Positions 5,784 to 38,872 of a stretch of 64,000 bases of DNA are shown here, in pieces. Below the pieces are notes generated by a model, which saw only the letters and a program-made list of their open reading frames with translations, did not search any database and was not told where the DNA came from. The position numbers and the translations under genes were made by a program. The stretch comes from an uncultured delta proteobacterium (GTDB lineage Bacteria; Desulfobacterota; Zymogenia; Zymogenales; Zymogenaceae): the NCBI GenBank assembly GCA_963735595.1, contig CAVTLK010000002.1, positions 320,001 to 384,000 on the forward strand. The letters run 5' to 3'. How positions within the stretch are numbered: position 1 is the stretch's first letter; the number at the start of each line of letters is the position of its first letter.

Positions 5784-6751
<968 letters not shown>

Positions 6752-10395: not shown

Positions 10396-10397
10396 CA

Positions 10398-14083: not shown

Positions 14084-14131
14084 GGCTGCCATCGTTATTT
14101 ATAAAGTTTATCACTATCATGTGAGGATGCC

Positions 14132-17715: not shown

Positions 17716-18255
17716 TTAGGCGGCTACCATTCTCATATCACGCTTGAGCGTTTCCATGCGGATACGCCCGCGCTCCCGCGTTTTTTTGATCCCGCCGTCT
17801 ATCTTTTTTAGTTCGCTGAGGAGCTGCGCATCGCGCTGGTCGTGGCCGACGATCCACCGATGGAGGAGATCGCTTTCGAGACTGAGATGCTGTCTGAGGA
17901 TGTGGATGTATTGTGTAGCGTAATGAGGAAAGACCGCCCGCGCACCCTGATAGCCGAGGTCATAGGCCTCGATGACCTTGAGGAGAAACCGCTCGTATTT
18001 CCACAGGCTTGCGTGGGTTTCTTCACATTCCTGTCTGAGAGTTTCCACCCCGGGGCTTCCGAGGAGCGATAGAAGGAATTCCTCCCGTTTCATGTGGGAG
18101 ACATCGATATACATCTGCAGGAGTTCGATGATCTCCTTGAGCATATAAGGTGGAACCTCCTTATTCTGTTCCATCCGCCGGGCGGAGTGATCGAGCATCT
18201 CGAGCAGGGATTCTATGACCCGTTCTTCTTTCTTGACATATTCAATCGATTTCAT
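17716..18255 (-). CDS. Hemerythrin-like domain protein (degenerate ligands)
   Basis: Pattern EE..I, Y.D.SHMKREE, ETH, Y...LRQH...E of the hemerythrin/HHE family. Start at ATG 18255 with a GGAGG RBS. Confidence 0.7.
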   Translation of the reverse strand: MKSIEYVKKEERVIESLLEMLDHSARRMEQNKEVPPYMLKEIIELLQMYIDVSHMKREEFLLSLLGSPGVETLRQECEETHASLWKYERFLLKVIEAYDLGYQGARAVFPHYATQYIHILRQHLSLESDLLHRWIVGHDQRDAQLLSELKKIDGGIKKTRERGRIRMETLKRDMRMVAA

Positions 18256-18456
18256 ACTACCCACCTCCAAGACGTCATGTATCTGTGGGATTTTTGTTCG
18301 AAGCACCATCAAGGAGAGCCATTTACTATAAATTAGTCATGATACATCAGGTTTCAAGGCGTTATAGATCGCCTCGGAAAATAACAGAACTTCTTTTCAT
18401 GTGACGTAACAGAAAGGGGATATCCTCCTCTCATTGATCCTTCGCTTGTCCTTCCT

Positions 18457-19221
18457 TCATACCTTTTCCAGGATCTCTTTGGCCAGGTTCAGATAGGCCC
18501 GCGCCCCAACCGAGCTGACATCAAACAGGACCGCCGGATTGCCCCTCTTGGGGACTTCCGCCAGACGGGAGTTACGGGGAACGATCGTCTCAAATACCTT
18601 GGTCTTGAGGTCGCGTCTGAGGTCATAGGCCACCTCCTTTGATGTTGTAGTCCTTCCGTCCACCATAGTCAGGAGAAATCCGAGGAGCTTAAGATCCGGG
18701 TTATATCTTCCCCCCACGACGCGGGCCATCCTCATCAGACGTCCGATAGTCTTGAGTGCGAAGTATTCGCTCTGTACGGGAACCAGCAGGTAGTCGGCCG
18801 CGGCGATACCGGCCATCGTTACTGCGCCCAGCGAAGGGGGACAGTCTACGATGATGAACTCGTATTCCGCCTTGAGCACGTCGAGGATTCGCTTTATGAT
18901 GAGCAGGTCGTCGTTGATTGTGGAAAGGTAGAGCGTCTCCTCGTCATTTGTCCAGATGTTTGAGGGGATGAAACTAAGATACTCGATTTCGGTTCCGTGA
19001 ATGAGACGCTTCGGTTCGGCCTTATCGATAACGGCGTTGTACATCCCGCCGCGAAGCTGCTCCCGATCCCGTCCGAAGCTGATCCAGAGCCCGCACTGGG
19101 GATCAATGCCCACCACGAGGGTATTGCGCTCATACACGCCCAGGGAAGCGCCAAGATTAACCGCCGTGGTGGTTTTCCCAACCCCACCTTTTTGACTGGC
19201 TATCGTTATGACAATGCCCAT
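18457..19221 (-). CDS. ParA-family ATPase (likely ParC-like chemosensory array positioning protein)
   Basis: KGGVGKTTT deviant Walker A, IDPQ, DCPPSLG, VPVQSEYFAL; directly downstream of cheB. Confidence 0.9.
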   Translation of the reverse strand: MGIVITIASQKGGVGKTTTAVNLGASLGVYERNTLVVGIDPQCGLWISFGRDREQLRGGMYNAVIDKAEPKRLIHGTEIEYLSFIPSNIWTNDEETLYLSTINDDLLIIKRILDVLKAEYEFIIVDCPPSLGAVTMAGIAAADYLLVPVQSEYFALKTIGRLMRMARVVGGRYNPDLKLLGFLLTMVDGRTTTSKEVAYDLRRDLKTKVFETIVPRNSRLAEVPKRGNPAVLFDVSSVGARAYLNLAKEILEKV

Positions 19222-19245
19222 ACGACCGCACCTCTCATAAACGGC

Positions 19246-20364
19246 TCAATGTCCGTTGGTGACCATAAGGTCGATCATCGCCGGGATCTGCTGGAGGGAA
19301 AGGACCGTATCGACAACGCCGTCTGCGATGGCCGATTTCGGCATTCCGAAGACGAGAGACGTCTTCTCGTCCTGGGCAATGGTCCTGCCTCCCATGATCT
19401 TGATCGCCTTGAAACCCCGCGAACCGTCCTTGCCCATCCCCGTGAGGATAACCCCGATCGTCTTTTGGCCGAAAATCGCCGCGGCCGAATAGAATAGGGT
19501 GTCGATCGAGGGAGTCGGTTTCGCTTGATCAGTACCCGCCTGCTGAAGCCCTATTTGCGGCGCCAGAAAAGACTTCTTGATCGTTATATCGTAATCGCCG
19601 GGGGCTACCAGAACCTTCCCGCCCTCCACGATTTCGCCATCCTGGGCCTCCACGACCGGCAGATGGCAAACCCGGTTAAGCCTTTCCGCGAAGAAGCGCG
19701 TAAAGAAACGGGGCATATGCTGAACGACGACGATGCCGACCGGGAAATTATCCCTGATTTTGCTCAGGATAAACTCGACGGCCTTTGGCCCTCCCGTCGA
19801 GGCGCCGATGACGACTACCTTGTTGTCGGACAGCTGCATCAGCTCCTGTCTGGTGTACCCTGACAGCGGCCTCTTGGGTGCTTCATCATGCAGCCGCGCG
19901 TCCATAGCCGCATCTTCTGCCCCCTTGATAGACAGGTAATACTCCATGTTGATAGCCGCGGCCGCCCTTATCTTAGCGATGAGCTCCTCCTTCAGGAACT
20001 GAAAGTTGAGCAGCATCGATCCTTTCTGAGGCTTCGTGATAAAATCGACGGCGCCGAGGTTAATAGCCCGAATCGTGATATTGGCCCCTTCCTTTGTGAG
20101 TCCGGAAAGCATGATGACGGGCGCCTGGTATTGTTCGACGAGCTCCCGTAATGCCGACAAACCGTCCATAGTGGGCATGATCACGTCCATGGTCACGACA
20201 TCGGGCTTGAATTCAATGTACTTCTTGATCGCCTCTTTACCGTCGGCCGCCAGCGCCGCGATCTCGATATCGGGTGTTTCTTCGACGACCTGGGTAATAG
20301 CCCGCCTGATAATCGCGGAATCGTCTACGACCAGGACCCTTATCTTCTTGCTATCCATTTTCAA
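19246..20364 (-). CDS. cheB: Chemotaxis response regulator protein-glutamate methylesterase (intact catalytic triad)
   Basis: REC domain (VVDDS..VTMD..KP) plus GASTGG, VQHMP, LTGMGKDG. Confidence 0.95.
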   Translation of the reverse strand: MKMDSKKIRVLVVDDSAIIRRAITQVVEETPDIEIAALAADGKEAIKKYIEFKPDVVTMDVIMPTMDGLSALRELVEQYQAPVIMLSGLTKEGANITIRAINLGAVDFITKPQKGSMLLNFQFLKEELIAKIRAAAAINMEYYLSIKGAEDAAMDARLHDEAPKRPLSGYTRQELMQLSDNKVVVIGASTGGPKAVEFILSKIRDNFPVGIVVVQHMPRFFTRFFAERLNRVCHLPVVEAQDGEIVEGGKVLVAPGDYDITIKKSFLAPQIGLQQAGTDQAKPTPSIDTLFYSAAAIFGQKTIGVILTGMGKDGSRGFKAIKIMGGRTIAQDEKTSLVFGMPKSAIADGVVDTVLSLQQIPAMIDLMVTNGH

Positions 20365-20384
20365 CTCGATCCAGCGTTACCCGT

Positions 20385-23300
20385 CTATAGTTCTTCTTCC
20401 GGTTGATCCGGCGCCGGTGTTCGTTTGGGTTTGTAGCGTTCAAGCGTCTGATGCTTACGTATTGCCTTTTCCCGTTCTATGGCCAGATTTACCAATTCCA
20501 CTACGTCAAGTATCAGCGAGATAGAACCATCCCCCATGATTGAGGCGCCGGAAACTCCCTTGGTGTTGGCAAAATTCTTTTCAAGTGACTTGATGACGAT
20601 ATTGTCTTCCCCGACCAGCCGGTCGACCATCAGTCCAACCTCTCTGCCCTCGGCGGAAAGAATAACGATAAATAGATGCGTCGGCGGACTCGCGTCACCG
20701 GTTTGCCAGCCCATATTGGCCTTGAAGATTTCGCTGAGCTTGATAAGGGGCAGCACCTTGTCCCGTATCCTCAGGACCTGGTGGCTCTCGATCGTCTCTA
20801 TCTCTTCGATACCGATGCGGACAGTCTCAATGATAGACACCAGAGGGATCGCGTACACACGATCGGATATCCCCACAATCAGGGCCTGAATAATCGCCAG
20901 CGTCAGCGGCAGCTTGATCATAAAAGAGGTTCCGTTGTCCTTCACCGTCATGACTTCGACGGTTCCTTTCAGCTTTTCAATGTTTCTTTTAACAATGTCA
21001 AGCCCAACTCCCCTGCCGGAGACCTTACTGACCTTCCTGGCCATTGAGACCCCCGGCTTGAAGAGGTAGTCAAGGGCCTCACGGTCGGACACGCGGGAAA
21101 GCTCCTGGGCGGCAACCTCACCGTCGGCTACCATTCGCTTCTTCACGTCTTCCAGGTCGATTCCCTTTCCGTCGTCCTTTATATCTATGATGACCTGGTT
21201 ACCTTGATGGTACGCCGAGATTGAAAGCGTGCCTTCCTCCGGTTTTCCTTTCTTCTTTCGTTCTTCCCGGGACTCAATGCCGTGGTCTATCGAGTTGCGG
21301 ATGATGTGGATGAGGGGATCTCCGATTTCCTCGATGACCGACTTATCCAGTTCGGTCTCTTTGCCGGTAATCACGAGTTTGATATCCTTGTCCATGGCGT
21401 CGGCGAGATCGCGCACGAGCCGGGGAAAACGGGAGAAAAGCTGATTGATTCCGACCATCCTGACCCGCATGACTCCCTCCTGCAGGTCGTTGCTGATCCG
21501 TCCCAACTCCATTGCCGATGACTCGAGATCGAGGGCGAGCTGCCGAAGCAGGGAAAGCTCCCGCTTATTGAGTTTATCAAGATCATACATCTCCCGATAT
21601 ACGTCTCTGAAAACCCCGGTCAGCTGGGAGAATGTCGCCCTGTTTACGGCGAGCTCTCCTACAAGATTCATGATCGTATCAACACGCTCTGTTTCGACAC
21701 GCAGTGTCTGTCGCGAGTATGGAGCATCTGCGGGAAGCTCTCCGTCGTCTCCGGTCGGCTCACCGCCATCGGCGCCTCCCGGCCCGGCGCCCGCGTGGGT
21801 TTGCTCAGCGGAATCGATGGATACCGATTCCGACATACCGCTCAGGTCCATACGATCGCCGCCGATGTGTTCGGGGGACGGCTCGTCGGCGGCATCAACC
21901 GCGTCTTGCAGACCCTCGGCATCGGGGCGGGTTTTACCGGATACCGGGAGGGATTGGGAGCCCGTCAGCGAACCGATTTCTTCCTTCAATTTCGCATAAG
22001 ACTCCTCAAGGGCGGGGAGAATCGTTAACCCATCGTCAGTAACCGCCGATCCGTTGTTCAGGATCGTAAGCTGCTTATCGACGATATCAATCATCGAATA
22101 GTATCCCATGAATTTTGCCGAGGATTTGAGGCTCTCGAGGGCCTTCTTGCATACCTCGATACTTTCGGGAACGTCGGCCTTCTGTTTGATATGGGAGATA
22201 CAGGTATTGATCGTATCCAGGTGCTGGCCGGCTGCAGAAACGAAGATATCAAGGAGCTCCTCGTCCTCCGTGGTCTCCTGTTCCGAAGGCTCAGTAACGT
22301 CCACTGTCTCGGCCTTAACTACGGATTTCCTGAGCCCGCTCTTGAGATCGATGAGCCCGTTTATCAAAAGGTCCAAATCGGCCTGCTTAAGGCCCTCCTT
22401 GTCTGCCATGTATGTATCGATGAGCGTACGAATCGAGTCAAGGCGCTCTACGATGGTGTCGTATTCCATGTAGTGGGCCGATCTCCTGAGCTTCTGGAGG
22501 ACATCGAGCACCTCGGAGAGCGACTCCCGGTCGGCCGTCCTCTCCCGGATCTTCTGTTGATGTTTATCTATTATCGAGAAGAGATCGACGGTCGCCGACA
22601 GGAAGATGTCGATCAGCTCTTCGTCGTGACCGGCTGTCAGATCTTCAACAACTTCTTTGTTTGCCTGAGGGCCGCGCGCTGCAGGCGAGCCGCTGCGCCG
22701 CGGCTGACTCGGTTGAATCGGCTGAGTTACGCGCGCGGTATGGTCGTCCTTGAAGAATGACACGATGTCCTTGGCGAGCTTGAGGCTGATGCCGTTGACC
22801 GACTCCAGCTCTTCAATACGCGCATTTCTGAGCGACCCTATGGAACGAAAGCCGGCCTTATAGAGGAGTTTCACCTTGGAGCCGCCCACCCCCGGTATGA
22901 TGGTAAACTCCTTTATGGCCTGGTCGAGGGAGAGATCGCCGCCCGTATCTTTTGAGCTTTGTTCAGCTATCCCTCCCTGCCCGGATTTGTGTTTCCTGAC
23001 AAAGTCCTTAATATGGTCTAATGCCTTGTAGAAACTCAGGAGCTCGGTGCTGTTTATGTTTTCGCCTTCCTCTAAGAGCGCCAGAGCAGAATTCCTCATC
23101 CCCGCCAGTACGTTCTTGAGCTCATCGTAGCCAAAATACTCTATCGAGGAGGAAAAGCTGCTCACCAGATCCAGGAAGCGGTTCAGCTCCTCGATGGTCA
23201 TGTTGCCTTCAAGAGTCCCGAGCCCCCGCTCAAGGTCCTTTATGTGATGGGCAACGATCTCCCCGATACCCTCGTCGAAGATATCCGTCTGGCCCGTGCC

Positions 23301-23801
23301 GCCGCCCGCGCGATCGTCCGGTATGTCCTGATTCTTCCGCTCGTCACGTGTGGGAGGCGTCATCTCCGGCTCAGGACTCCGGTCAACAGGGCCTGCGGGA
23401 CTTATAAGGTCTTTTTCGCCCATAGATTCGAACGCGCCCCTGATCTTCGTTATGATCCGGTCGGTATCGGTCAACTCTTCGCCGGTTGTCGAGAGGTCAT
23501 TGAGAAGAGAATCGATACCGTCCTTTCCGTAAAACAGGACGTCGATGATTTCCCGGTTTATCTCGATCTTGCCCTGGCGAACCCGCTCGAGACACCCCTC
23601 CAATACGTGGAGGAAATCACCGAGTTTTACCAGGCCGATATAGTTTGCCGAGCCTTTGATGGTGTGTATGGACCGGAAGATCTGATTGAGGACCTCCTTG
23701 TTTTGGGGTTCCTCGAGGATCCGGTTGAGCGATTCTTCCAATTCCGCCAGGTGCTCGTTGCTCTCTATAATGAATTCCTTGAGCAATTCTTCGTCATACA
23801 T
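20385..23801 (-). CDS. cheA: Chemotaxis histidine kinase with extended N-terminus (one Hpt, three Hpt-like repeats, HhH module)
   Basis: FRSIHTIKGSA Hpt, dimerisation domain, HIIRNSIDHGIE, DDGKG, SGRGVGLD, C-terminal CheW-like P5 domain. Confidence 0.95.
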   Translation of the reverse strand: MYDEELLKEFIIESNEHLAELEESLNRILEEPQNKEVLNQIFRSIHTIKGSANYIGLVKLGDFLHVLEGCLERVRQGKIEINREIIDVLFYGKDGIDSLLNDLSTTGEELTDTDRIITKIRGAFESMGEKDLISPAGPVDRSPEPEMTPPTRDERKNQDIPDDRAGGGTGQTDIFDEGIGEIVAHHIKDLERGLGTLEGNMTIEELNRFLDLVSSFSSSIEYFGYDELKNVLAGMRNSALALLEEGENINSTELLSFYKALDHIKDFVRKHKSGQGGIAEQSSKDTGGDLSLDQAIKEFTIIPGVGGSKVKLLYKAGFRSIGSLRNARIEELESVNGISLKLAKDIVSFFKDDHTARVTQPIQPSQPRRSGSPAARGPQANKEVVEDLTAGHDEELIDIFLSATVDLFSIIDKHQQKIRERTADRESLSEVLDVLQKLRRSAHYMEYDTIVERLDSIRTLIDTYMADKEGLKQADLDLLINGLIDLKSGLRKSVVKAETVDVTEPSEQETTEDEELLDIFVSAAGQHLDTINTCISHIKQKADVPESIEVCKKALESLKSSAKFMGYYSMIDIVDKQLTILNNGSAVTDDGLTILPALEESYAKLKEEIGSLTGSQSLPVSGKTRPDAEGLQDAVDAADEPSPEHIGGDRMDLSGMSESVSIDSAEQTHAGAGPGGADGGEPTGDDGELPADAPYSRQTLRVETERVDTIMNLVGELAVNRATFSQLTGVFRDVYREMYDLDKLNKRELSLLRQLALDLESSAMELGRISNDLQEGVMRVRMVGINQLFSRFPRLVRDLADAMDKDIKLVITGKETELDKSVIEEIGDPLIHIIRNSIDHGIESREERKKKGKPEEGTLSISAYHQGNQVIIDIKDDGKGIDLEDVKKRMVADGEVAAQELSRVSDREALDYLFKPGVSMARKVSKVSGRGVGLDIVKRNIEKLKGTVEVMTVKDNGTSFMIKLPLTLAIIQALIVGISDRVYAIPLVSIIETVRIGIEEIETIESHQVLRIRDKVLPLIKLSEIFKANMGWQTGDASPPTHLFIVILSAEGREVGLMVDRLVGEDNIVIKSLEKNFANTKGVSGASIMGDGSISLILDVVELVNLAIEREKAIRKHQTLERYKPKRTPAPDQPEEEL

Positions 23802-23892
23802 GACGCCACCTTTATAGTGCTGAGGTTATCAATACCCACGGGTTATCGTTTTTGACGGGGCATCCTACTATCCTTCCCCGTTTCTAATTCGG

Positions 23893-24654
23893 TTATATGC
23901 TCGTATACAGTATATGGATTCCGACAAATAACATTACGAAAATAAAGAACTCCCTGAGCGAGTCTGTGCGCATACGCCGCGATATCTGAGAGCCGAGATA
24001 CGATCCGATAATTACGCCCGGCAGCCCCCACGCAACCGCCATAGGAGACAGGCTCCCGCCGAGCGACAGATGGGCGGTCAGGCCCATAACGACAACGATG
24101 AACATAACCGCAAGGGCCGTGCCGACGGCCACTTCCATACTGTAGTTGAGCCTTTTGACCATGGACGGCACAATAAAATCGCCGACGCCGATGGACAAGA
24201 GACCGCTCAGGAACGAAAAGAAGAACGGGATATACCCGACACGGGCGGCCTGTCTTACGCCTACGCGTCGGAGCTCGTTGTCCATATACCAATCCCGGCC
24301 GGAAAGGAAGAAGATGGCCAAACCGACGGCCGCCGTTCCCAGTCCCAGCCTCAGCACGTTATCGGGGAGGTACGTGCCCACGACGGAGCCGGCTATTACC
24401 ATCGGCAGCGCCAGGCCTGCGTAAAAGAGAGCCACTTTGATGTCTACCCTCCCGGACCGCCAGTATGCGATGGTCCCGACCCCCATCCCCCCTACCTGGA
24501 TAGCCAGCGCAGTGGTGATGGCCTCCGGTGGCTGAATGCGGTACAGGAGGATTAGCACGGGCGACCACAAGATCCCCCCTCCAATGCCGAGCATAACGGC
24601 TACCGTGGAAATGGCAATCCCAAAAAGGAAGATCGTAAACGGAAACTGCTCCAT
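23893..24654 (-). CDS. TauE/SafE (TSUP) family transporter
   Basis: MLGIGGGIL..P..L, SGLLSIGVG, AVGTAL, G.IIGSYLGS; about 8 TM helices with an internal repeat. Confidence 0.85.
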   Translation of the reverse strand: MEQFPFTIFLFGIAISTVAVMLGIGGGILWSPVLILLYRIQPPEAITTALAIQVGGMGVGTIAYWRSGRVDIKVALFYAGLALPMVIAGSVVGTYLPDNVLRLGLGTAAVGLAIFFLSGRDWYMDNELRRVGVRQAARVGYIPFFFSFLSGLLSIGVGDFIVPSMVKRLNYSMEVAVGTALAVMFIVVVMGLTAHLSLGGSLSPMAVAWGLPGVIIGSYLGSQISRRMRTDSLREFFIFVMLFVGIHILYTSI

Positions 24655-24660
24655 AGGGTT

Positions 24661-25284
24661 TTATCTCTTCAACCGGGATAAATCAGCCCTGGCGAGGTTG
24701 AAATCCCTTGTCATCTCATCGAGTTGTTCCATCTCTTCAGAGATACGCTCCATATCGGCCAGTACGACCTCGTGGTCGCCTTTCTCATACGCCGCCTTCA
24801 TGGACCGGACCCGCTCACGGCACCTGTTGCCCGTAATACGCACCACTCCAATAACCTCACCGAAATCGGAGACGACGTCGTTGATAAACCGTCCCAGTCT
24901 CCCGATTTCATCGTTCACATAGACCGGGATCGGATTCCCGAAATCACCCTGTGCCATATTCGCCGTAACGGCAAACATACGCCGGAGGGGTATGGTAATC
25001 TTTTTAACGAACAGAATCAGTACAACGCCCGTTACGAAGGACTGGATCGCGATCAGGAAAATCACCTTTCTCTTTATCTGATCGATGGGGGCCGTAGCCG
25101 GGCCGCTACCCATTTGCGCCTGATACTGACCCTGGGAACCGGGTCCCAAACCCCGATTCGGCTCCTGAGCGTTGATGTCAATGAGAAACTCAAATCCGAG
25201 CACTAACGAGGAAAAGACGATGATACAGACGTATATCATCATCCTCCTGGTCAGCGTGACGGTTCTTGTATTCGTTGGTTTCAT
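24661..25284 (-). CDS. 2-TM HAMP-domain protein, MCP-like but lacking the signalling tip
   Basis: Two TM segments, HAMP (PL..M..MAQGDF..DEIGRLG..IN), short coiled-coil tail. Confidence 0.8.
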   Translation of the reverse strand: MKPTNTRTVTLTRRMMIYVCIIVFSSLVLGFEFLIDINAQEPNRGLGPGSQGQYQAQMGSGPATAPIDQIKRKVIFLIAIQSFVTGVVLILFVKKITIPLRRMFAVTANMAQGDFGNPIPVYVNDEIGRLGRFINDVVSDFGEVIGVVRITGNRCRERVRSMKAAYEKGDHEVVLADMERISEEMEQLDEMTRDFNLARADLSRLKR

Positions 25285-25286
25285 CG

Positions 25287-26099
25287 TTATATAAATATAC
25301 CCAACACGACGTTTCTATTGTCCCAGATCATCTTGATGCCGGTCAGAAAGACGAAGAGCGAAAAGAACGTCTTCAAAAGAGATCCCTTGGCGAGCCTGTT
25401 GATGATCGGACCCAGCTGGCCTCCGATCAAGACGCCGCCCATCGTGAAGATCGCAACCTCCCACCGGATCTGGCCCTCCCAGATATTGATGGATGTTGCC
25501 ACCCATCCGGCCAGCCCTTCCACGACCACGGTCGTGGCAATAGCCCGATGGACGTTCATCTTGTATACCCGCTCCAGGAGGGGAAACGAGGTCTCGGCGG
25601 TACCGATGGAGGAAAGACCGCTCGAAATACCCCCGATGAACGGAACCCACGCGAAGGGGTAGATTTCCTCAGTCAAAAAACCTTCGCGGTCTCCGTATCG
25701 TTTTTCCGCCATAGATGCGAAAGTCCAGACGGCGCAACACGTTACGACGAGTCCGAAAAAGATCTTAAGGATCGCCTCATCGAGCACCATCACCAGGTGC
25801 AGGCCGATAACGACGCCGGGTATGGTCAGCAGTACCATCGGGAACGCCATGGAAAACTCGATCTGCCTTTGCCTGGTGTACGCGACCATGCCTGACGTCA
25901 TGCCGCAGAGCTCCGTGACCATGCCGGTCCCTATCGCCTCCGGCACGCTCATCTTGAGTGCGTAGACGAAAATGGGGAAAAAGATAATGGCGCCCCCGAA
26001 CCCGCTGCTGGTGGCCATCGATGCCGCCAGGATAGCCACCGGAAACATAAACCAGTAGTGAGTCGTCGCAGACCAGATGTAGTGACCAACGGCTTCCAT
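25287..26099 (-). CDS. TauE/SafE (TSUP) family transporter
   Basis: SSGFGGAIIFFP, AIGTGM, SGLSSIG, AIATT, GGVLIGGQLG. Confidence 0.85.
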   Translation of the reverse strand: MEAVGHYIWSATTHYWFMFPVAILAASMATSSGFGGAIIFFPIFVYALKMSVPEAIGTGMVTELCGMTSGMVAYTRQRQIEFSMAFPMVLLTIPGVVIGLHLVMVLDEAILKIFFGLVVTCCAVWTFASMAEKRYGDREGFLTEEIYPFAWVPFIGGISSGLSSIGTAETSFPLLERVYKMNVHRAIATTVVVEGLAGWVATSINIWEGQIRWEVAIFTMGGVLIGGQLGPIINRLAKGSLLKTFFSLFVFLTGIKMIWDNRNVVLGIFI

Positions 26100-26112
26100 G
26101 TGATCCTTCCCT

Positions 26113-26841
26113 TTACACTTTCGTTAGATCGACCTGATAGAACTTGAATGATTCCACCAGGGACTTCAGCTCGCCGATATTGGAGTAAAGTGTGTTCAAC
26201 TCCCGTCGAATATCTTCGGTAATTTCCTTTTCCTTAAGGACCTCAACGCTGTTATAGACGCTGTCGACCGACCGGACGGCCGAATTATTGATCTTACCCA
26301 CCATGAGCAGTACTTCCTGAAAATCGGCGGTTATATCGTTAATGATAGAGCCAAGCTGGCCGATCTCGTCCTTCGTGTAGACCGGCATCGTCGTGGAGAG
26401 GTTTCCCCGTGATATCTCCCGGGCGGCGTGTACCATTTCGTCCAGCGGCCCGGCCACCTCCTTGATGAAGAACCAGAGCGCCACGCCGACGCAAAAGATG
26501 GTGATGGCCAGGATAATGAGCATCCGTTTCTGGAGATGGTAGAGGGGGGCGAAAACCTGCTCGTAATCAAGGTCTTCTACGGACCCCTCGATATTCTGGG
26601 CCCGGGCCTCGGCGACGAAATTGCCCTGCATCTTGTTGGTAAGCCTGGCTTCCCCGATCTCCCAGATCAATTCAAGGCTCATGGAGATCGAGACAGCCAC
26701 GATCAACAGAAAATAGATGAGCAGCTTTTTCTTCAGGTTGGTGAAGACCGCGCGTTTTCTCCGCAGCAAAAGGCTGCTTCTGCGTTCTGTTTTTCTCCGA
26801 TCAGTTCCATCCCAATCGGGACTCCCGTTTTTATACGTCAT
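26113..26841 (-). CDS. 2-TM HAMP-domain protein, MCP-like but lacking the signalling tip
   Basis: Two TM segments, HAMP (PLDEM..ISRGNL..DEIGQLG..IN), tail ending LKSLVESFK. Confidence 0.8.
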   Translation of the reverse strand: MTYKNGSPDWDGTDRRKTERRSSLLLRRKRAVFTNLKKKLLIYFLLIVAVSISMSLELIWEIGEARLTNKMQGNFVAEARAQNIEGSVEDLDYEQVFAPLYHLQKRMLIILAITIFCVGVALWFFIKEVAGPLDEMVHAAREISRGNLSTTMPVYTKDEIGQLGSIINDITADFQEVLLMVGKINNSAVRSVDSVYNSVEVLKEKEITEDIRRELNTLYSNIGELKSLVESFKFYQVDLTKV

Positions 26842-26922
26842 TTGCTCTATCCATGTCCGTCGGTAGTGTTATATTTTGCCCGGTAAAGGGCGCGGCCCCT
26901 TTTGTGGAGAGCGCCCCAGCCA

Positions 26923-27297
26923 TTAATCTTCCAGAATTTTAACGATCCGCTCCCTGAGCTCTTCCGGTTTGAATGGCTTGAGGATGACCGCCTTGATCCC
27001 CATCTTGAGGGCCGCTTCTTCAAGGAAGTGCTTTTCTTCCTCCTGCCGCAACGTCAGGAGTACCAGCCTGGCCGTCGGGTCTTCCTTCAGGATCTGTTCT
27101 GCCGCAGCAAAACCGTCGGTGTTTCTCATGGTGACGTCCAGGGTTACCAGATCGGGCTTGAGCTCGCGAAATAGCGCGACCGCCTCGTCGCCATCCTTTG
27201 CCTCTCCGATCACCTTCAGTTCACCGCCGTCCAACGCTTCCTTGATCCGGTTCCTCATGAACGACGAATCATCCACCACCAATAACCTCTTAGCCAT
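26923..27297 (-). CDS. cheY: CheY-like single-domain response regulator
   Basis: VVDDSSFMR, LVTLD, ILKPF. Confidence 0.88.
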   Translation of the reverse strand: MAKRLLVVDDSSFMRNRIKEALDGGELKVIGEAKDGDEAVALFRELKPDLVTLDVTMRNTDGFAAAEQILKEDPTARLVLLTLRQEEEKHFLEEAALKMGIKAVILKPFKPEELRERIVKILED

Positions 27298-27469
27298 AGT
27301 GCACTCCTCACTCTCGGTAACGTGTGGGTTGTCGACAACGCCACACCCGGTGTCGGCCGGCCCCGTCCCTCTGACGCGCCGCCTCGTTTTGCGAGGCGAC
27401 GCTCGTCGGTATCCGTTACGTTAACACGTATCTCAAACACGAGAACGGGACAAGCCCGGTCCGGACGTC

Positions 27470-29845
27470 TTACTGCCCGGCTGCCTTGATCGCTTCTTCC
27501 TTCTCTATTTCCTCGGTGGTGCGGTATTTGAACTGCTGCATCAAGCCGACGTTGGCGCCCGATGATTCCACGATGTTCCGCTGGAATTCGGACACCTGTG
27601 ATGCCTGTGCGGCAACGCGCTCCGCGTTCCTGGATTCGTCTGCGACCGACTTGTTGACGGTATCGGCGATACTAACGACCGACTCGATGTTCTTTTCCAC
27701 GGTCGTAGTGGCGCGTCCCGACTCGCCGGTCATCTCCACGATTTCCTGCGCAAGAGACGCCAGGTCGTCCATCGACCTGAGGACTTCTTCGATACTCCTC
27801 AGCTGCTGGGCCATGGCGTCGGCAACGATCTGGTTGATCTTGACGGCCTCGTTACCACCATCCACACCGATCTGCAGGAACTCGGCAGCCTGCTTGGCAA
27901 GTCCGGAGTTTGTCCTGGTAACTTCGCGGTTGGTCTCGACGTTCTTCAGAATGGTGGAAAGGGTCTGGGCGATGTCGCCGGCGGCCTTTGATCCCTGCTC
28001 AACTGCCTTGTTGGCGTTCTTAATAAGATCGGAGATCTCCTTGGTTGCGTCGGCGCTGCGCTCGGCCAGCTTCCGCACCTCGTCGGCGACGACCGCAAAG
28101 CCCTTGCCGTGTTCCCCGGCACGGGCCGCCTCGATGGCGGCGTTAAGCGCCAGGAGGTTGGTCTGCTCGGCGATGTCGTTGATGACCTCGACGATCTCAA
28201 ACACCTGCTCGGTCGACTCCGTAATGGCCTTCATGCCTTCCTCGTTCAGCCGCACACCCTCCTGGCCCTTCTGCACGATACCCATGACCTCCTCGGCGCG
28301 GTCGGACGCTTTGGCCGCCTCCTGGGACACGGTGTTAGCGATATTCAGGGCGTCGTTAAGCTTCTTGACCGCCTCGACGCTGCCTATACGAACCCGCTCG
28401 GCCTCCCGGGCAACCTCGGTAAGCGACGCTGCCATCTCGTTGACCGCCGATGATGTCTGGGCCGCGTTGGTGGCCTGGGCGTTGGCGCGCTCCTGAACCT
28501 GCCGTGAGGCCTTGGCCACCTCGCCCGCCAGAGACAGCGACTCGTGAGAACTGCGCGCGGCCTCGTCGGTGACGTTCGTGATCCGCTCAAGCGATCCCCT
28601 GAGCGCGCCCATCAGGCCCGCGTTGTCTGCAGACAGCGGCGCAGCCGACTCGCTGTAGCTACGCACGAGGCCGGCGTTCCTGGCGACCCTGGCCACGATG
28701 CCTTCGAGCCTGAAGACAAACTCGTTAAATCCCCGGGCAAGCATCCCGATCTCGTCATCGCCCGCGGCGGGAAGCCGCCTGGTCAGGTCGGCGCCGGCGC
28801 CCGCCAGGGCGGTCATCTCGTTTGCGATCCTGATGATCGGCTGGGCAATGGCGCGGGCAAGCAGATAGCCGACGCCGGCCGCTATGAACAGGATAAGGAT
28901 GGTCATCAGGGTTGCGTAGTTCCGTGTCGCATTCAATGACGCGAGGACCTCGTCTTCACCCTGCTCAGCGACCAGGATCCAGTTGTAATCCGCAAGGTAA
29001 TCAACAACCCCGAAGACGTCGTTGCCCAGATAGTTCTTCCACCGCCCAACGGTGAGGTCTTCCCCGCCTCCCTCCTCTTTGCCGGAGATCACGTCGGGGA
29101 GGGACTTAGCTTTGAGGAAGGCGTCGCTTTTGCTCAAATCGAGCTCGAGGATGGAGCTCTCCTTGATCATGCCCTCTTTCTTCAGCTCGTCGACAAAACG
29201 TGACTCCGAAATCATCAATCCCGTACTCGCGTCGATCAGATACACCTCACCGGTCTCTCCCAGGGACATAGATTCTCTGAGGAGGTTGCTGAGGTACTTC
29301 ATGTTGACCTGCTCAACAAAGACGCCGACTGTCGTATTGCCCCTCTTAACGGCAGAGGCGAGTACGAGAATCGGGTTTTTGGTACGGTTACTGAAAACCA
29401 TTTCGTATTGTCGTTCGGCCTTTCCGCTCATTATGTCCTTGTAATATTGGCGCTCTTTGATCGTAATTGTCCCGATATACCTCGGTTCGCTGTCCGCCAC
29501 TATATAACCGCCGCCCCCCTCGCAGTAGCTGATACCTTCAAGGTAGTCGGCCCTGCTTTTAACCAATGCCCCGAAAAAGATATTTGCCAGCGCATAATCT
29601 CCTGATTCAAGCGACGACGTAAACTCGAGGTCCGTCGGAAAGTCGTTAAGATCATGTCCTCTTTCTGACATGAAAGAACGCACCAAACCGTCCGCTGAAT
29701 CAACCAAAGACGTTAGACGTTCCCGGGTAAGATTTTCCGTGTCGGACTTGATCCGGTAATATGCCAGGACCGAGATCGTCAGCGCCGGTACGAGGGCCAT
29801 AAGGACGATCGCGATGATCAGCCTGGTTCGCAGTGTAAACTTCAT
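27470..29845 (-). CDS. Methyl-accepting chemotaxis protein (periplasmic dCache-like sensor, HAMP, long signalling domain)
   Basis: 2 TM, HAMP ([11 protein letters not shown]), hairpin tip [40 protein letters not shown]. Confidence 0.95.
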
Positions 29846-29889
29846 TTGTTGCCTCCTTTATCCTTTCTTGCTTTTTCCTTGTTAATAGG

Positions 29890-30393
29890 TCACAGGGTGG
29901 AGAGCTGCCGCTGCTCGCCGGCCGTCAATATTTTCGAGAAATCCAGGAGAATAACCAGACGGTCGTCGATTCTGCTTACACCGGTGATATACTCGCCCTC
30001 CACCCCGCTCATGATCATATCCGGGGCGCCCTGCACGGACCCCGCGGGCACGGTTATGACCTTCGATACCGAATCGACCACAAAACCGGTAACCCGTTTT
30101 TCCAGCTCGATAATGATGATACGCGTTGCCTTATCGGCATCAATCGTGGGAATGTTGAGCCGTTTCCTGAGGTCGATAACCGGGACTACCTTTCCGCGCA
30201 GGTTGATGACCCCCTCGACGAACCGCGGGGTATTGGGGACTTCGGTTACCGGTGCCGGCCGTATGATCTCCTGCACCAGGAGGATATCGACTCCGAACTC
30301 TTCCTGGCCTAAGAAGAAGGTCACTATCTGGAAATCGCCGGTCGGCGTTGTCTTTGGTTTTCGCGATATTTCGGACATAACTGTCACCTCCAC
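29890..30393 (-). CDS. cheW: Chemotaxis coupling protein
   Basis: FGVDILLVQEI, GVINLRGKVVPVIDLR, GFVVDSV. Confidence 0.95.
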   Translation of the reverse strand: MEVTVMSEISRKPKTTPTGDFQIVTFFLGQEEFGVDILLVQEIIRPAPVTEVPNTPRFVEGVINLRGKVVPVIDLRKRLNIPTIDADKATRIIIIELEKRVTGFVVDSVSKVITVPAGSVQGAPDMIMSGVEGEYITGVSRIDDRLVILLDFSKILTAGEQRQLSTL

Positions 30394-30402
30394 GTATCTT
30401 CG

Positions 30403-31236
30403 CTACTGTTTCTTATATATAAAGACGTCATTGACGCGCTCCTGCATGAACCGGTCGGTATGGCGGAGGACCGATTCGGTAGAGGCGGTAAAAAGGAAAC
30501 CGCCCGGATTCAATACATCGGAAAGCCCATTCACGAGGGTGCGCGCACGATCGTTCGAAAAATACATTAAGACGTTACGGCAGAAGACGGCGTCGAACGA
30601 GAAAGCGGGTCGACGCACCCACGACCGGGTGTCGTTGAGGTTGACAGGGTAAAACTCGACTAACCGTTTAACCCGGTCATCGACCTGCCAGTATCCGCCG
30701 TCTTCGATCATATACTTCACCCGATACTCCTCCGGGAGATGACGGACCGACCAATCTTCATACCGCGCGGTCCGCGCATGGCGCAGGGACTTCGTATTGA
30801 TGTCACAGCCCACGATCTTCACTTTAAGGTCGCCGGCTTCCAGTATCTTTCCGAATCGCTCCAGAACGATCATCGCCACGGTGTAAGGCTCTTCACCGGT
30901 GGAACAGCCTGCTGAAAGTATATTGATTCTTCGGTCGAGCGCGGTCCCCGATTCAAAGAGCCGACCCAACACTTCTTCCTGGAATACGATACATTGGTCT
31001 TCCTCCCGGTAGAAGTAGGTCTCGCTGACCGCCAGCCTGTCAAGGAGCTCAACGACTTCGGTGTCGGGCGCCCGGTGCTTTACGTAAAGGAAGTAGCTGA
31101 AGGGATTCTCAATTTCGAGCTCCCTCTGACGCTCGGCGACCTTCTTCTTAAAGACCTTGGCCCTTCCGTTGAGTATTGTCACTCCCGTGACCTCCTGGAC
31201 GTAGTCCATGACCATGTCGACTCCGTCCCTATTCAC
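30403..31236 (-). CDS. cheR: Chemotaxis methyltransferase
   Basis: SETYFYRE, SAGCSTGEEPYT, FCRNVLMYF. Confidence 0.95.
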   Translation of the reverse strand: MNRDGVDMVMDYVQEVTGVTILNGRAKVFKKKVAERQRELEIENPFSYFLYVKHRAPDTEVVELLDRLAVSETYFYREEDQCIVFQEEVLGRLFESGTALDRRINILSAGCSTGEEPYTVAMIVLERFGKILEAGDLKVKIVGCDINTKSLRHARTARYEDWSVRHLPEEYRVKYMIEDGGYWQVDDRVKRLVEFYPVNLNDTRSWVRRPAFSFDAVFCRNVLMYFSNDRARTLVNGLSDVLNPGGFLFTASTESVLRHTDRFMQERVNDVFIYKKQ

Positions 31237-31609
31237 CTTCTCCTCCCAACAGCATCTTCATATGCGTAACGAGCCTTTTGGGTTCAGTCGGCTTTATGAG
31301 GTATATGTTTGCCCCGGCCGACAATCCCCGCTCTCTGTGACGCGCCGCCTCTTCCTCAACGGTGATGATAATGATCGGGACCGACTGATACCCGTCAAAT
31401 GTCCTGATTTGTTTGATGAATTCATACCCATCCATAACGGGCATGAATACGTCGGTGATGATCCCGTCGTAACACCTGGAGCGGGCCAACGAAAGGCCTT
31501 CGGCGCCGTTTTCGGCGGTATCGACGGCAAATCCCTCCGTCTTGAAGATTACCCGGATCGAATCTCGAATTACCTTTGAGTCATCAACGACCAACAAGTG
31601 TGGAGACAT
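31229..31609 (-). CDS. cheY: CheY-like single-domain response regulator
   Basis: VVDDS, IITDVFMP.MDG, YLIKP; start at ATG 31609 with a GGAG RBS. Confidence 0.88.
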   Translation of the reverse strand: MSPHLLVVDDSKVIRDSIRVIFKTEGFAVDTAENGAEGLSLARSRCYDGIITDVFMPVMDGYEFIKQIRTFDGYQSVPIIIITVEEEAARHRERGLSAGANIYLIKPTEPKRLVTHMKMLLGGEGE

Positions 31610-31626
31610 ATTCTCCCCGCTCCTAC

Positions 31627-33438
31627 CTATGACTTGACCATGAGCGCCCGGGCAATCTCTTGGGCCAGGAGATAATCCGGGACAATTCTGTCTGCCAATC
31701 CTTTTTGTATGACCTGTCCGGCCATTTCGGGTGAAAGGCACGTATCCGTCTGTTGAACGATGATGGTCCCGCCCACCCGCTTGAGCTCCTGGGCGCCCTC
31801 GAGCCCGTCAACACCTTCCCCCGTCAGGACCACGCCGATCGCCCTCTCACCGAACGCTTCGGCCAGGGACATCAGAAGCATGTTGAATGAATTGCGGTGC
31901 TCAAAATCAAACGGCCGATCGTTGAGCCTGATACTACTGGCGGCTCCTTCCCGAAGGACCGTCATGTAGCGGCTGTCGGAGCATAAGTAACAGACGCCGT
32001 TGTTCATAATCTCGCCGTCCTGAGCCGGTTTAACGGGGATCGGCGAGTAGGAATTCAGGTATTCACAGAACGTCCCGATAACCTCTTCGGGCATATACTG
32101 AACGATGAGGACTGCGGCCTTCAGGTCCTCGGGGAATCGAGGGAGTATTCTCAAGAGGACGCTGTAGCCGCCCAGCGCCGTTCCCATGGCAATTACGGAA
32201 TCGGCATTCAGCCGTTTGCCCTCGGTCCTTGTATTTTTCCCTTTTTGCCTCAGGCGGATGTGCTGCACGCTGGAGATCGTGACATTCGCCGCCCTTTTGA
32301 CCGTTTCGACGATGTTCTTCTTCTGGACCTCCAGGCTCAGATCCTGACGTGTAGAAGGCTTTGCGATGAAGTCAATGGCCCCGAAACGCAGCGAATCAAA
32401 CGTGGCCGCGGCTCCTTCCTGCGTGTACGCTGAGAGCATGACCACCGGCGTGGGCTGCATGATCATGATGTGCTTAAGCGCCGTCAGGCCGTCCATCTCG
32501 GGCATATTGACATCCATAGTCACCACGTCCGGCTTTAAGTGCGCCACTTTCTCAACGGCCTCCTTGCCGTCCTTTGCCTGGCCGACAACCTGTATCTGCT
32601 CATCCTGGGAAAGAATATCGGTGATCCCTTTTGTAATGATTGCGGAGTCATCGACGACAAGAACACGGATAGCCGCGCTCTGCGTTTTGTCCGGGGCAGG
32701 TTCAAAATCCGTCAAGATATCCTGTTCGAGCACGAAATCGCCCCGGTGGGATTCATCAATAGAGACCAGGGATTCTATGAGGAGCTGCTCCCATTTCTTT
32801 ACAATGCTTCTCTTGGGAGCGGCTGTGTTTCTCTTGGTGGAAAACGAGCCGCTCTGCCAGGAAAGGATATCCTTGAGCGCCTGCTCCCCCTCGAGCGTAT
32901 CGGTTTGCGCATGCACGATTTCCCCGTTCTCGAAGAAGACCGCCCCTTCTCTGTTGCTGTCATTTATATAGACAGCACTGCTGAGGCGGGATATACAGTT
33001 GATCTGGATTATGTCCGTGACCTGGATTCCTTCTATGGCGCCGTCAAAGCTTTTCTTTGGCAGAGAAAACGTATTTTGAATAAGGCTCACCAGATTCCTG
33101 ACTACGAACGGTTTTTCGATGTATCCGATGGATCCCATGCCTTGGACTTCCCTGGTGACGTCAGGGCTCGAGTGTGCAGTCATGACGATGACGCCGATAC
33201 CGGGATTTATTTGCCTGGCGGAAACGATAAGCTCAAATCCGTTCATTTCGGGCATATATATATCGGTTATCAAAAGGTCTATCAGAATATTATTAATGAT
33301 ATCAAGGGCCTGTGCGCCAGACGATGCCGTTAAGATCGAGGCCTCCTGGTAGGTGCGCTTAAGGTTCGTCTTGACGACATCCAGCAACGGTTGGTCGTCG
33401 TCGACCAGCAGGATCGTCCTTTTTTCATCTGCGAACAT
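31627..33438 (-). CDS. REC-DUF4388(PATAN-like)-REC-CheB-like hybrid; methylesterase domain degenerate
   Basis: REC1 (VDDD..ITD..KP), FDGAIEGIQVTDIIQ..GAVFFENGEIVHA..W..GSF, REC2, CheB fold with GTALGG/VQYMP. Confidence 0.85.
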   Translation of the reverse strand: MFADEKRTILLVDDDQPLLDVVKTNLKRTYQEASILTASSGAQALDIINNILIDLLITDIYMPEMNGFELIVSARQINPGIGVIVMTAHSSPDVTREVQGMGSIGYIEKPFVVRNLVSLIQNTFSLPKKSFDGAIEGIQVTDIIQINCISRLSSAVYINDSNREGAVFFENGEIVHAQTDTLEGEQALKDILSWQSGSFSTKRNTAAPKRSIVKKWEQLLIESLVSIDESHRGDFVLEQDILTDFEPAPDKTQSAAIRVLVVDDSAIITKGITDILSQDEQIQVVGQAKDGKEAVEKVAHLKPDVVTMDVNMPEMDGLTALKHIMIMQPTPVVMLSAYTQEGAAATFDSLRFGAIDFIAKPSTRQDLSLEVQKKNIVETVKRAANVTISSVQHIRLRQKGKNTRTEGKRLNADSVIAMGTALGGYSVLLRILPRFPEDLKAAVLIVQYMPEEVIGTFCEYLNSYSPIPVKPAQDGEIMNNGVCYLCSDSRYMTVLREGAASSIRLNDRPFDFEHRNSFNMLLMSLAEAFGERAIGVVLTGEGVDGLEGAQELKRVGGTIIVQQTDTCLSPEMAGQVIQKGLADRIVPDYLLAQEIARALMVKS

Positions 33439-33447
33439 ACACGGCTC

Positions 33448-34488
33448 CTACTGTTCCTTGAGCAGACCTGCGACAAAAGATGGCATGGCGTGATCGTCCA
33501 TGACGTGTTGTGCTATCCCCTGCCGTGATATCTCTTCGTTTGAATCGGGCAGAAAATAGCCGGATCGATCCTCCATGACTGTCACCCCTCCGCGATCATT
33601 GACGGCCGAAAACCCGGATACGCCGTCATGTCTTACTCCGGCGAATAATATACCAACGGTCCCGGCGCCGAAGGTCTCGGAGCCGGATATCATCATCGCG
33701 TCTATCGGGTTTCCGCCCGACGGCCCGAGCTCCATGAAGACGCTATTATTAGTATTGCGAGTGAACGTAAGATACCGATCGAGGGAATTGATATATACTG
33801 TAGCGGCCTCGATCTCAATGCCGTTTCTGGCGCTCTTCACGGCCAATGGGGCCACGGCGTCAAACTTTTCCACGAATGAGTCTATGATAACCGGAGAGAT
33901 ATCCTGCGTTACGATAATGGGAAAGGGGAGGTTTTTCGGAAGCCTGCAGATAAGGCGAATGATGCTGTTTGGACCTCCCAGCGACGTTCCGATGACAAGG
34001 ATCTTATTGTGCGTCCACGCGGGGGCGGCCGTGCGTCTACCGCCTTTTCTGTGAAGGATTCGGGCCCGCCTGATCATATTAATATCGGCGGTCGATGCGA
34101 TCTTGACCCTGTTGATAAGATCCTCCTTCTGCACCTCGATATCCCGCGAGATCGATCCCGACGGCTTAGGCAGGAAGTCCACCGCGCCGAGGCGAAGCGC
34201 CTCGAAGGTTATGTCACCCTGGTGGGTAAGGGCGCTCACGATGACGACCGGCGTTGGAACGTGGATCATTATATGTCTGAGTGCGCGGATCCCGTCCATC
34301 TCGGGCATATCGATATCGAGTGTTACTACATCCGGTCGCAACCTCTTTATCTCCCGTATGCCGTCGATTCCCGTCCTTCCGTATCCAACCACTTCGATCT
34401 GAGGATCAGTCTGGAGGATCTTCGTGATGGCTTTTCTCATGTACTCGGCGTCGTCAATGACGACCGCCCTGATTCGCTTTCCTTCCAT
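33448..34488 (-). CDS. REC-CheB-like protein; catalytic His missing
   Basis: REC (IDDA..TLDIDMP..KP), GTSLGG, VTQDIS in place of VQHMP, FAGVRHDG. Confidence 0.85.
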   Translation of the reverse strand: MEGKRIRAVVIDDAEYMRKAITKILQTDPQIEVVGYGRTGIDGIREIKRLRPDVVTLDIDMPEMDGIRALRHIMIHVPTPVVIVSALTHQGDITFEALRLGAVDFLPKPSGSISRDIEVQKEDLINRVKIASTADINMIRRARILHRKGGRRTAAPAWTHNKILVIGTSLGGPNSIIRLICRLPKNLPFPIIVTQDISPVIIDSFVEKFDAVAPLAVKSARNGIEIEAATVYINSLDRYLTFTRNTNNSVFMELGPSGGNPIDAMMISGSETFGAGTVGILFAGVRHDGVSGFSAVNDRGGVTVMEDRSGYFLPDSNEEISRQGIAQHVMDDHAMPSFVAGLLKEQ

Positions 34489-34888
34489 TCGGGCGGATAT
34501 CCTCGTTTTCGTTTAGAGTCTTGGCGATAAGCTCGGAGAGGCTTTCCATCAAAAACGGCTTTTGAAGGTAGCCAAAGAGGCCTTCCCGATCGAGAGACTT
34601 CTTAGCCCCTTTATCGAGATTATTGGAGAGAAGGACTATCTTCGCGGTCGGCTTTATCCTTCTTACCTCCAGAAAAAAGTTCACGCCACCCATACCCGGC
34701 AGCACTGAATCGGTAATAATAAGGGAGAATTCCTGTTTGCCAAGCAATTGAAGGGCGGTTTCGCCGCTGTTGGCCAGTTCGATATGTATTTCGGGGAAAA
34801 CCCCGACGATATTCCTTTTAAGGAACTGCGAGTATGTGTTTTCTTCATTGACAAGCAGAAGCGCCGCGCCCTTTTTTATTTTTGCCAT
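34454..34888 (-). CDS. Single-domain response regulator (atypical acidic pocket)
   Basis: LLVNEE..LIITDSVLPG..QKPF; first gene of the chemosensory operon. Confidence 0.8.
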   Translation of the reverse strand: MAKIKKGAALLLVNEENTYSQFLKRNIVGVFPEIHIELANSGETALQLLGKQEFSLIITDSVLPGMGGVNFFLEVRRIKPTAKIVLLSNNLDKGAKKSLDREGLFGYLQKPFLMESLSELIAKTLNENEDIRPNGRKANQGGRH

Positions 34889-34942
34889 AACCGGTTGCTC
34901 ACAAGGGTAAGAAGGCCATTGGTTTTACACAATGCATACATT

Positions 34943-34958
34943 AGCAAGTTACGTGCCA
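34943..34958 (-). promoter_or_regulatory. Sigma-54 (-24/-12) promoter of the chemosensory operon
   Basis: Minus strand TGGCAC-GTAAC-TTGCT is an exact match to TGGCAC-N5-TTGCW, about 55 nt upstream of the first gene. Confidence 0.85.
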
Positions 34959-37116: not shown

Positions 37117-37128
37117 GTCTGCTAAGGG

Positions 37129-37779: not shown

Positions 37780-37882
37780 TGGACATCCTGTCTATACACG
37801 AGTATCCGGTACCGTTTCGACAATTCGCGGCATATCGGGGCGGAAACTGTTCCGGCGTGAAATATCACCGTCGGCCGCTTTT

Positions 37883-38749: not shown

Positions 38750-38872
38750 TCTTCACGTCCTAAATACGTCTTCACGTTATTCATACGTAATTCTTTGCCT
38801 GCTGTAGGACCCAGGGGAAAACTGAAATCGTTCCCTATACATACGGCGAAACGATGATTGGTCAGTTCCTTC

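Follow-up and report, generated by a model that had tools for sequence, protein, structure and literature searches.

The described chemosensory systems of bacteria are sorted into 19 classes, which form the reference frame of the field. Class F1 combines a CheA that bears a P2 domain with CheC, CheD or CheX genes in its cluster. Its cognate receptor has a signalling domain of 44 heptads (44H), according to PMC6943060. In class F2 of spirochaetes, CheA has both a P2 and a P3 of about 121 residues (PMC10782961), and a CheW-CheR-like fusion is present (10.1101/2020.03.11.986844). Class F4 of the Desulfovibrionia has a multi-Hpt CheA without P2 and with a P3 of 63–66 residues in 29 of the 30 rows consulted, the CheA of the type IV pili (Tfp) systems ends in a REC domain, and the CheA rows consulted for F11, F12 and F14–F17 run to 380–821 residues with a short P3 (PMC10782961). 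On the output side, the PATAN domain (DUF4388) has PilB1 and PilC as its binding partners in Synechocystis (10.1101/2021.06.11.447907). None of F1, F2, F4, Tfp or the alternative cellular function (ACF) systems matches, in its testable features, the 16-gene operon treated here, which lies in a 64,000-nucleotide (nt) stretch of DNA (the window; G000:C2:320001-384000) from the 3.63-Mb, 93% complete genome (G000) of an uncultured member of the Desulfobacterota. The operon is a chemosensory system, and the lineage to which it belongs probably departs from the known ones at the level of a class, being set apart here by features and not by class hidden Markov models.

The gene content identifies the locus as chemosensory: an MCP (methyl-accepting chemotaxis protein), a CheA with Hpt, P3, kinase and CheW domains, a CheW and a CheY are all encoded, the cores of MCP, CheW and CheA are intact in sequence, and CheA retains a single phosphorylatable His. 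The constant marks of the system are its catalytically dead CheBs, a fusion of PATAN to one of them, and the length of the CheA P3, more than the TauE membrane proteins that first drew attention. The preliminary description of the locus had named built-in TauE transporters among its unusual features; what stands is the tie of TauE to che genes, and because many members lack TauE, it is not the defining part. The 16 open reading frames (ORFs) all occupy the minus strand between 17716 and 34888 of the window, with intergenic gaps of at most 172 nt and every frame intact, and a Pfam scan supports the family label of each. The shared orientation, order and families agree with what had been read from the sequence at the outset. 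In order of transcription, the features are as follows.

34943..34958, minus strand: sigma54 -24/-12 site, TGGCAC-N5-TTGC, 70 nt upstream of the first gene.
34454..34888, minus strand: stand-alone REC (REC1), acidic pocket partly degenerate (Pfam Response_reg, alignment); orthologs in genomes G003, G006 and G007.
33448..34488, minus strand: REC-CheB pseudo-methylesterase (CheB1), His to Asp (Pfam, alignment).
31627..33438, minus strand: REC-PATAN(DUF4388)-REC-dead CheB fusion of 603 residues, Ser to Ala and His to Tyr; a candidate for the output protein.
31229..31609, minus strand: CheY1, a canonical single REC; the longest ORF extends to 31741.
30403..31236, minus strand: CheR methyltransferase (Pfam).
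29890..30393, minus strand: CheW, plain, 167 residues (Pfam).
27470..29845, minus strand: dCache-HAMP chemoreceptor (the MCP), signalling domain of about 56 heptads (Pfam, alignment).
26923..27297, minus strand: CheY2, canonical, directly before H1 across the lineage (Pfam, gene context).
26113..26841, minus strand: HAMP1 (H1), tip-less receptor-like protein with two transmembrane (TM) helices, HAMP and a short helical hairpin.
25287..26099, minus strand: TauE1, TauE/SafE-family membrane protein (Pfam, above cut-off).
24661..25284, minus strand: H2, tip-less receptor-like protein (Pfam, tree).
23893..24654, minus strand: TauE2, TauE/SafE-family membrane protein, forming a two-gene module with H2.
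20385..23801, minus strand: CheA, 1138 residues, with Hpt (His46), three His-less Hpt-like bundles, a helix-hairpin-helix (HhH) module, extended P3, kinase and CheW domain.
22731..22913, minus strand: HhH module inside CheA, residues 297-357 (Pfam HHH_5/HHH_2).
19246..20364, minus strand: CheB3, REC-CheB with the S-H-D triad intact (Pfam, alignment).
18457..19221, minus strand: ParA-like ATPase (Pfam).
17716..18312, minus strand: hemerythrin-like gene, first metal-binding His replaced (Pfam match weak, just under cut-off).

The start of CheY1 is corrected from that of the longest ORF to what is probably an ATG at 31609, which gives 126 residues, as in G003. The idea of a sigma54-driven operon held up: the strict motif matches once in the window against 0.02 expected (genome-wide, 11 sites against 3.6), the host genome has two rpoN genes, and G003 shares the upstream site unchanged, with relaxed versions in G006, G007 and G096. 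Most of the other first genes tried showed no such site within 500 nt, and scans of sigma70 promoters and terminators did no better than chance.

That this is a real, conserved system is virtually certain. The order of the 15 genes from REC1 to ParA is complete in G003, G006 and G007 and partial, running to contig ends, in G008 and G009, at 40–98% identity. A record named for Candidatus (Ca.) Zymogenus carries TauE1-H2-TauE2-cheA with a TauE1 68% identical, and the host likely belongs to that family; the operon's genes were not matched in four other family genomes (88–94% complete), so six of ten carry it. Linkage of TauE and HAMP genes to che genes in other genomes, on which the preliminary description had staked its claim of novelty, was looked for and found: all five named Desulfobacterales loci have cheY-H1-TauE1 with cheA downstream and a PATAN or CheW gene nearby, and in each of the 11 metagenome loci examined, che or PATAN genes adjoin TauE1 or H1 (19 had been fetched, some of which repeat genome loci). 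Searched against 1.84 billion representatives, a profile built from the tip-less proteins matched 85 clusters at E 1e-30 or better; within the phylum it matched 21 of 401 genomes. A search led by CheA added operons that have no HAMP and TauE genes yet carry the PATAN-REC-dead CheB gene and further dead CheBs. Altogether the system occurs in at least 35 of the 401 Desulfobacterota genomes (32 by context, three by CheA match and family only), or about 9% of those sampled. An HDOD gene comes first in the operon at 7 of 35 loci. Desulfonema magnum and Desulfobulbus sp. TB have CheAs that fall in the clade, and one Magnetomoraceae record has a TauE1; Desulfonema magnum and the Magnetomoraceae are of filamentous or multicellular habit. 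A compact form (L056, L063, L066, L069, L112, L113, L115), found in small flagellated genomes, consists of HDOD, two dead CheBs, PATAN-REC-dead CheB, cheY and cheA, with neither MCP nor CheW at the locus. The hemerythrin-like gene, through which redox sensing had been proposed, stands beside one of 35 related loci (G003) and has two paralogs elsewhere in the host genome; it is thus a local add-on and not part of the system.

The REC and CheB domains give the lineage much of its character. Seven RECs were counted, as before, in REC1, CheB1, the fusion (two), CheY1, CheY2 and CheB3; the phospho-Asp is kept in all seven, and the acidic pocket is canonical in six and N-E-E in REC1. The Ser-His-Asp triad, scored with motifs that we take to be those of E. 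coli CheB, is absent from 33448-34488 and 31627-33438 and present in 19246-20364, bearing out the earlier reading of pseudo-CheBs. Across the lineage loci, the triad is missing from 67 of 74 CheB domains, in one of them only through truncation, so that 66 of the 73 complete domains are without it; of the seven that keep it, six belong to the CheB3 type found in the Ca. Zymogenus family, and all eight CheBs from other che loci are intact (these counts include a few duplicate loci). The PATAN-REC-dead CheB protein recurs throughout the lineage, and together with the dead CheBs and the exact P3 length it is retained in many families, flagellated carriers included. CheR and an intact CheB stand inside the operon almost only in the Ca. 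Zymogenus family: no CheR was found in 30 loci outside it, many of them cut by contig ends, and all five non-family carriers tested encode CheR elsewhere in the genome. At G000:C4:506204-509097, a sigma54 activator, a strict sigma54 site, a REC-PATAN protein and a roadblock (MglB-like) gene follow in a row; this REC-PATAN paralog is also found in relatives that lack the operon.

The CheA is equally distinctive. Its predicted model (mean pLDDT 72) places four helical bundles before the core, at about residues 4–129, 174–275, 380–499 and 512–613, and His46 stands in the first only, in agreement with the one His-bearing Hpt reported earlier. The HhH module, likewise spotted at the outset, sits between the second and third bundle at about residues 290–357; it recurs in 12 of the 14 closest CheA matches and in none of the 106 others among the matches listed, and Table S2 of Berry et al. 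2023 (PMC10782961) has no HhH entry. Neither Pfam nor the model reveals a P2 domain or a C-terminal REC in the protein. The P3 helices are predicted to be 37 and 36 residues long, and the P3 span matching residues 698–790 measures 93 residues in 39 of 42 lineage rows, the remaining three being 89, 92 and one cut by the end of its locus, compared with 135–136 in four spirochaete rows and 70–81 in 28 of 31 other CheAs.

The receptor, besides which a single further MCP was found in the host genome, aligns almost gap-free with the 309-residue 44H domain of T. maritima, apart from six extra heptads per arm, which makes it about 56H. The 12 receptor classes of MiST, as given in PMC6943060, include neither 56H nor 60H, 58H being nearest; receptors of the Ca. 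Zymogenus family are 56H, those of Desulfobacterales members 44H, and those of three further families 60H. Between the receptor (27470-29845) and its G003 ortholog (L013:9941-12308), the first 226 residues are 48% identical and the remainder 91%, so that the sensor part looks, on alignment, swapped or fast-evolving. In the G008 operon an extra stand-alone sCache_2 gene lies directly before cheW (L017:25-576). A ParA gene is present in 19 of 35 related loci. A satellite operon of the host (G000:C4:137019-140204) encodes a degenerate REC-CheB, a ParA 44% identical to that of the operon, and a kinase-less CheA-like protein made of a His-less Hpt-like region, HhH-like, Hpt-like and P3-like helices; it may serve to position the same array.

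Set against the described classes, the operon shares something with several and fits none of those compared, as the preliminary description had supposed of its accessory set. Likeness to F1 appears in the best match of CheA in the PDB, an entry that we take to be T. maritima CheA, and in the 44H receptors of some lineage members. MiST also labels as F1 the CheAs Desulfomonile tiedjei DESTI_RS29395, Desulfatitalea tepidiphila DFT_RS13335 and Thermodesulforhabdus norvegica BM091_RS10645, which have two to three Hpt domains, no P2 and a dimerization domain of 78–79 residues (PMC10782961 Table S2); these three are probably members of the lineage, by architecture as tabulated and not by sequence, and the lineage, with an architecture of its own, has thus probably been filed under F1. 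The operon differs from F1 in its lack of P2, its 56H receptor, dead CheBs, PATAN fusion and TauE/HAMP pairs, and Pfam finds no CheC, CheD or CheX gene among its 16 genes. Spirochaetal F2 supplies the nearest named CheAs outside the lineage and shares an extended P3, but the operon CheA has no P2, its P3 span is 93 residues against 135–136, and its CheW is plain. As in F4, CheA is multi-Hpt and without P2 and a ParA lies in the operon; here, however, there are four Hpt-like bundles against three Hpt and the P3 is longer. Two loci, L058 and L060, which from their gene order we take to be F4-like, have an intact CheB and branch apart from the lineage, yet within an open fork. The cyanobacterial Tax/Tfp systems likewise have a PATAN-REC regulator beside a plain CheY, and most operons of the wider lineage also lack a working CheR/CheB pair; unlike Tfp and ACF, the operon CheA has no C-terminal REC, and PATAN is fused here to a dead CheB.

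In a 51-row tree of CheA, from which 26 of 77 sequences were dropped for being near-copies or having long branches, a clade at 99/96 unites 21 lineage CheAs, and the CheAs of the Ca. Zymogenus family (100/100), that of G057, F2 and an F4-like row meet in an open fork. A 32-row tree with only two F2 rows joins the lineage to F2 at 92/94 and the Ca. Zymogenus family to F2 at 81/85, and an approximately unbiased (AU) test retains a topology in which the lineage excludes F2 (p 0.365, 32-row tree). The host's own Dif-like CheA, which with architecture-identified rows is the only F1 reference in these trees, falls far from the operon CheA.

On the input side, the nearest parallels to the TauE/HAMP pairs are sensory rhodopsin II with HtrII and DctA with DcuS, in which a transporter-fold membrane protein is encoded beside a two-TM HAMP transducer. 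HtrII has its own signalling tip, whereas H1 and H2 have none and are partnered by the TauE/SafE family. The matches of TauE1 and TauE2 to PF01925 lie above cut-off (135 and 144 bits against 32.6); no solved structural relative of TauE1 was found by sequence. H1 and H2 each have two TM helices, HAMP and a short two-helix hairpin, in accord with the tip-less receptors of the preliminary description, and they are two subfamilies split at 100/99. In the tree set, H1 follows cheY in 15 of 15 cases and is itself followed by TauE1 (8) or cheA (7); H2 is followed by TauE in 12 of 13, within the operon or elsewhere; and TauE1 orthologs were seen only beside H1 and che genes. Superposed on HAMP-Tsr, the H1 hairpin uses only the receptor's start and very end (105 residues, rmsd 2.3, chain range 4-303). 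A Foldseek search with the H1 model gave no match at E 0.001, and the best non-self match of an H1/H2-tail profile, the C-terminus of the genome's other MCP, reached E 4.8 among 17,659 sequences, a hint only. Distant HAMP clusters in the Atlas are mostly from Thermodesulfobacteriota, one from Spirochaetota. Proteins P0059-P0124 and P0163 comprise TauE1-like ones (about 41%), several from named Spirochaetota, and a Spirochaetota cluster of tip-less HAMP proteins.

Lineages without TauE1 mostly have a sulfonate-type binding protein instead. In one family, four genomes encode this SsuA/TauA-like protein at the start of the operon, and in another a 45% identical protein follows TauE2. Of 401 genomes, 27 have the binding protein; 24 of these are carriers (21 identified by context, three by CheA match only), the other three being weak matches in genomes without the known system, and it was found in none of 12 TauE1 carriers and none of 13 non-carrier controls picked by the authors. 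The either-or distribution, although drawn from genomes that are kin, suggests that TauE1 and the binding protein replace each other as inputs for the same kind of anion. In one family the binding protein lies inside the operon with no adjacent permease genes and therefore fits sensing; in one family a full ABC transporter of nitrate/sulfonate type comes after H2-TauE2. The sulfur-oxyanion theme of the preliminary description thus gains from the binding protein in sister operons, but a search for dsrA came up empty for the host genome and its five carrier relatives, as well as for all nine other genomes whose H2-TauE2 lies within the operon or next to it (of 38 genomes tested overall, 25 have dsrA). 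A link to sulfate respiration is rejected on these grounds, and any link to sulfur would be of another sort. Gene context leans modestly towards the TauE-HAMP pairs as input; a sulfur oxyanion as their ligand is a tentative proposal.

As for output, neither flagellin nor FliM was found in the host genome, so flagella are an unlikely target there and flagellar control in this host is rejected. A non-flagellar output in this host is very probable. Among 39 carriers, no FliM was found in 17, the host being one; nine of the 17 are at least 97% complete. The host genome has pilB, pilT, pilC, pilS and a pilin, and PilT is present in 24 of 25 other carriers. Pili may well be the output, at a little under an even chance; some other non-flagellar output is less likely. 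The host also carries a Dif-like che cluster (G000:C5:127136-142657) of cheR, cytoplasmic MCP, cheW, cheY, cheB and a split cheA; an MglA-like GTPase adjoins it, and pilT is close by.

These parts can be assembled, with some reserve, into a full pathway in which the dCache receptor and two TauE/tip-less HAMP pairs would sense a sulfonate-like anion and the PATAN regulator would steer type IV pili, not flagella. By established Che biochemistry, MCP, CheW and CheA would build a membrane array and CheA would phosphorylate the RECs. TauE would act as a co-sensor whose state reaches the array through its HAMP protein, for instance where that protein forms heterodimers with the complete receptor, and ParA with the HhH/Hpt-like region may position the array. 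The two dead CheBs, their RECs phosphorylatable, would be phosphorylation-gated binding or scaffold proteins, CheR and CheB3 would provide adaptation in the Ca. Zymogenus family, and the PATAN domain, by analogy with cyanobacterial PatA-type regulators, would take the output to the pilus motor, all under conditional expression by sigma54. Several facts weigh against this pathway. Seven of 15 H1 genes have no adjacent TauE, H2-TauE2 lies far from che genes in five genomes of the tree, and the best models of the binding protein, SsuA and TauA, score under both cut-offs. HAMP-DHp fusions match the H1 tail no less well than HAMP-Tsr does (Z 8.9, 8.5 and 8.1, all weak for helices), so that descent of H1 and H2 from a receptor is plausible at most. 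FliM is present in 22 of 39 carriers; PilT also occurs in all four relatives without the operon and cannot single out the system; the host's pilB-pilT-pilC locus is frameshifted in this assembly and may be decaying, although frameshifts in other genes too suggest sequencing indels; and the Dif-like cluster could be the pilus controller. The carriers, moreover, are kin, and the co-occurrence counts are not independent.

It seems rather unlikely that the same input feeds aggregation, biofilm formation, a second-messenger level or cell polarity instead of motility, as in ACF systems. The HDOD gene that opens 7 of 35 loci, the REC-PATAN paralog with its own sigma54 site next to the roadblock gene, the many carriers without flagella, and the presence of a CheA of the clade in Desulfonema magnum and of TauE1 in the Magnetomoraceae record would all suit such an output, but Pfam finds no HDOD, diguanylate cyclase or DNA-binding regulator among the operon's own genes, and the PATAN proteins tested so far, as reported in 10.1101/2021.06.11.447907, act on the pilus motor. 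Improbable is a reading in which roles are reversed and the Che pathway controls anion export or uptake by way of the tip-less HAMP protein, or in which H2-TauE2 forms a transporter-regulator pair of its own, co-expressed with the rest. H1 remains between cheY and cheA where TauE1 is missing, genomes with a stand-alone H2-TauE2 carry the che system too, and the operon-borne binding protein has no permease neighbours; these points stand against the scattered H2-TauE2 modules, the ABC transporter behind TauE2 and the lack of the very tip that contacts CheA and CheW, which speak for it. That the operon is an F1 or F2 flagellar system that has diverged, its odd genes being remnants in decay after the host lost flagella, is very improbable: the probable members filed as F1 in Berry 2023 Table S2 (PMC10782961), the 44H receptors in Desulfobacterales, the 81/85 grouping with spirochaete F2 CheAs and the four of ten family genomes without the operon point that way, yet CheA has no P2, 16 of 16 frames are intact in the host, and dead CheBs, PATAN fusion and exact P3 length are kept across many families, flagellated carriers too.

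A wider reading extends the pilus-steering pathway to a further chemosensory class across Desulfobacterota, gliding filamentous and multicellular forms included: its sensors would be transporter proteins, either TauE paired with tip-less receptors or a binding protein of sulfonate type, dead CheBs would replace methylation-based adaptation, a PATAN-CheB fusion would steer flagellum-independent surface motility, and the Zymogenus-family operon would be the full version with a working CheR/CheB pair; this is speculative and, as a whole, unlikely. In the searched literature, outside which most subscription papers lie and to which PMC8396549 and PMC9321776 contribute in part, no description was found of this system, of tip-less receptors paired with a transporter family, of CheB pseudo-enzymes retained in two or three copies, or of PATAN fused to CheB, although the supplement of 10.1101/2021.06.11.447907 may list such fusions. 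Because many carriers lack flagella and Desulfonema magnum falls in the CheA clade, the system is a concrete candidate for steering in non-flagellated sediment bacteria, and since cultured carriers or probable carriers exist, it is testable.

A sugar-use cluster (LacI, SDR, ThuA, Gfo/Idh/MocA, MFS_2) occupies 7378-17640 of the window, its last ORF having 690 residues and no Pfam match, and nucleotide-sugar and glycan genes of lower GC content lie on either side of the region (194-6733 and 35668-41345).

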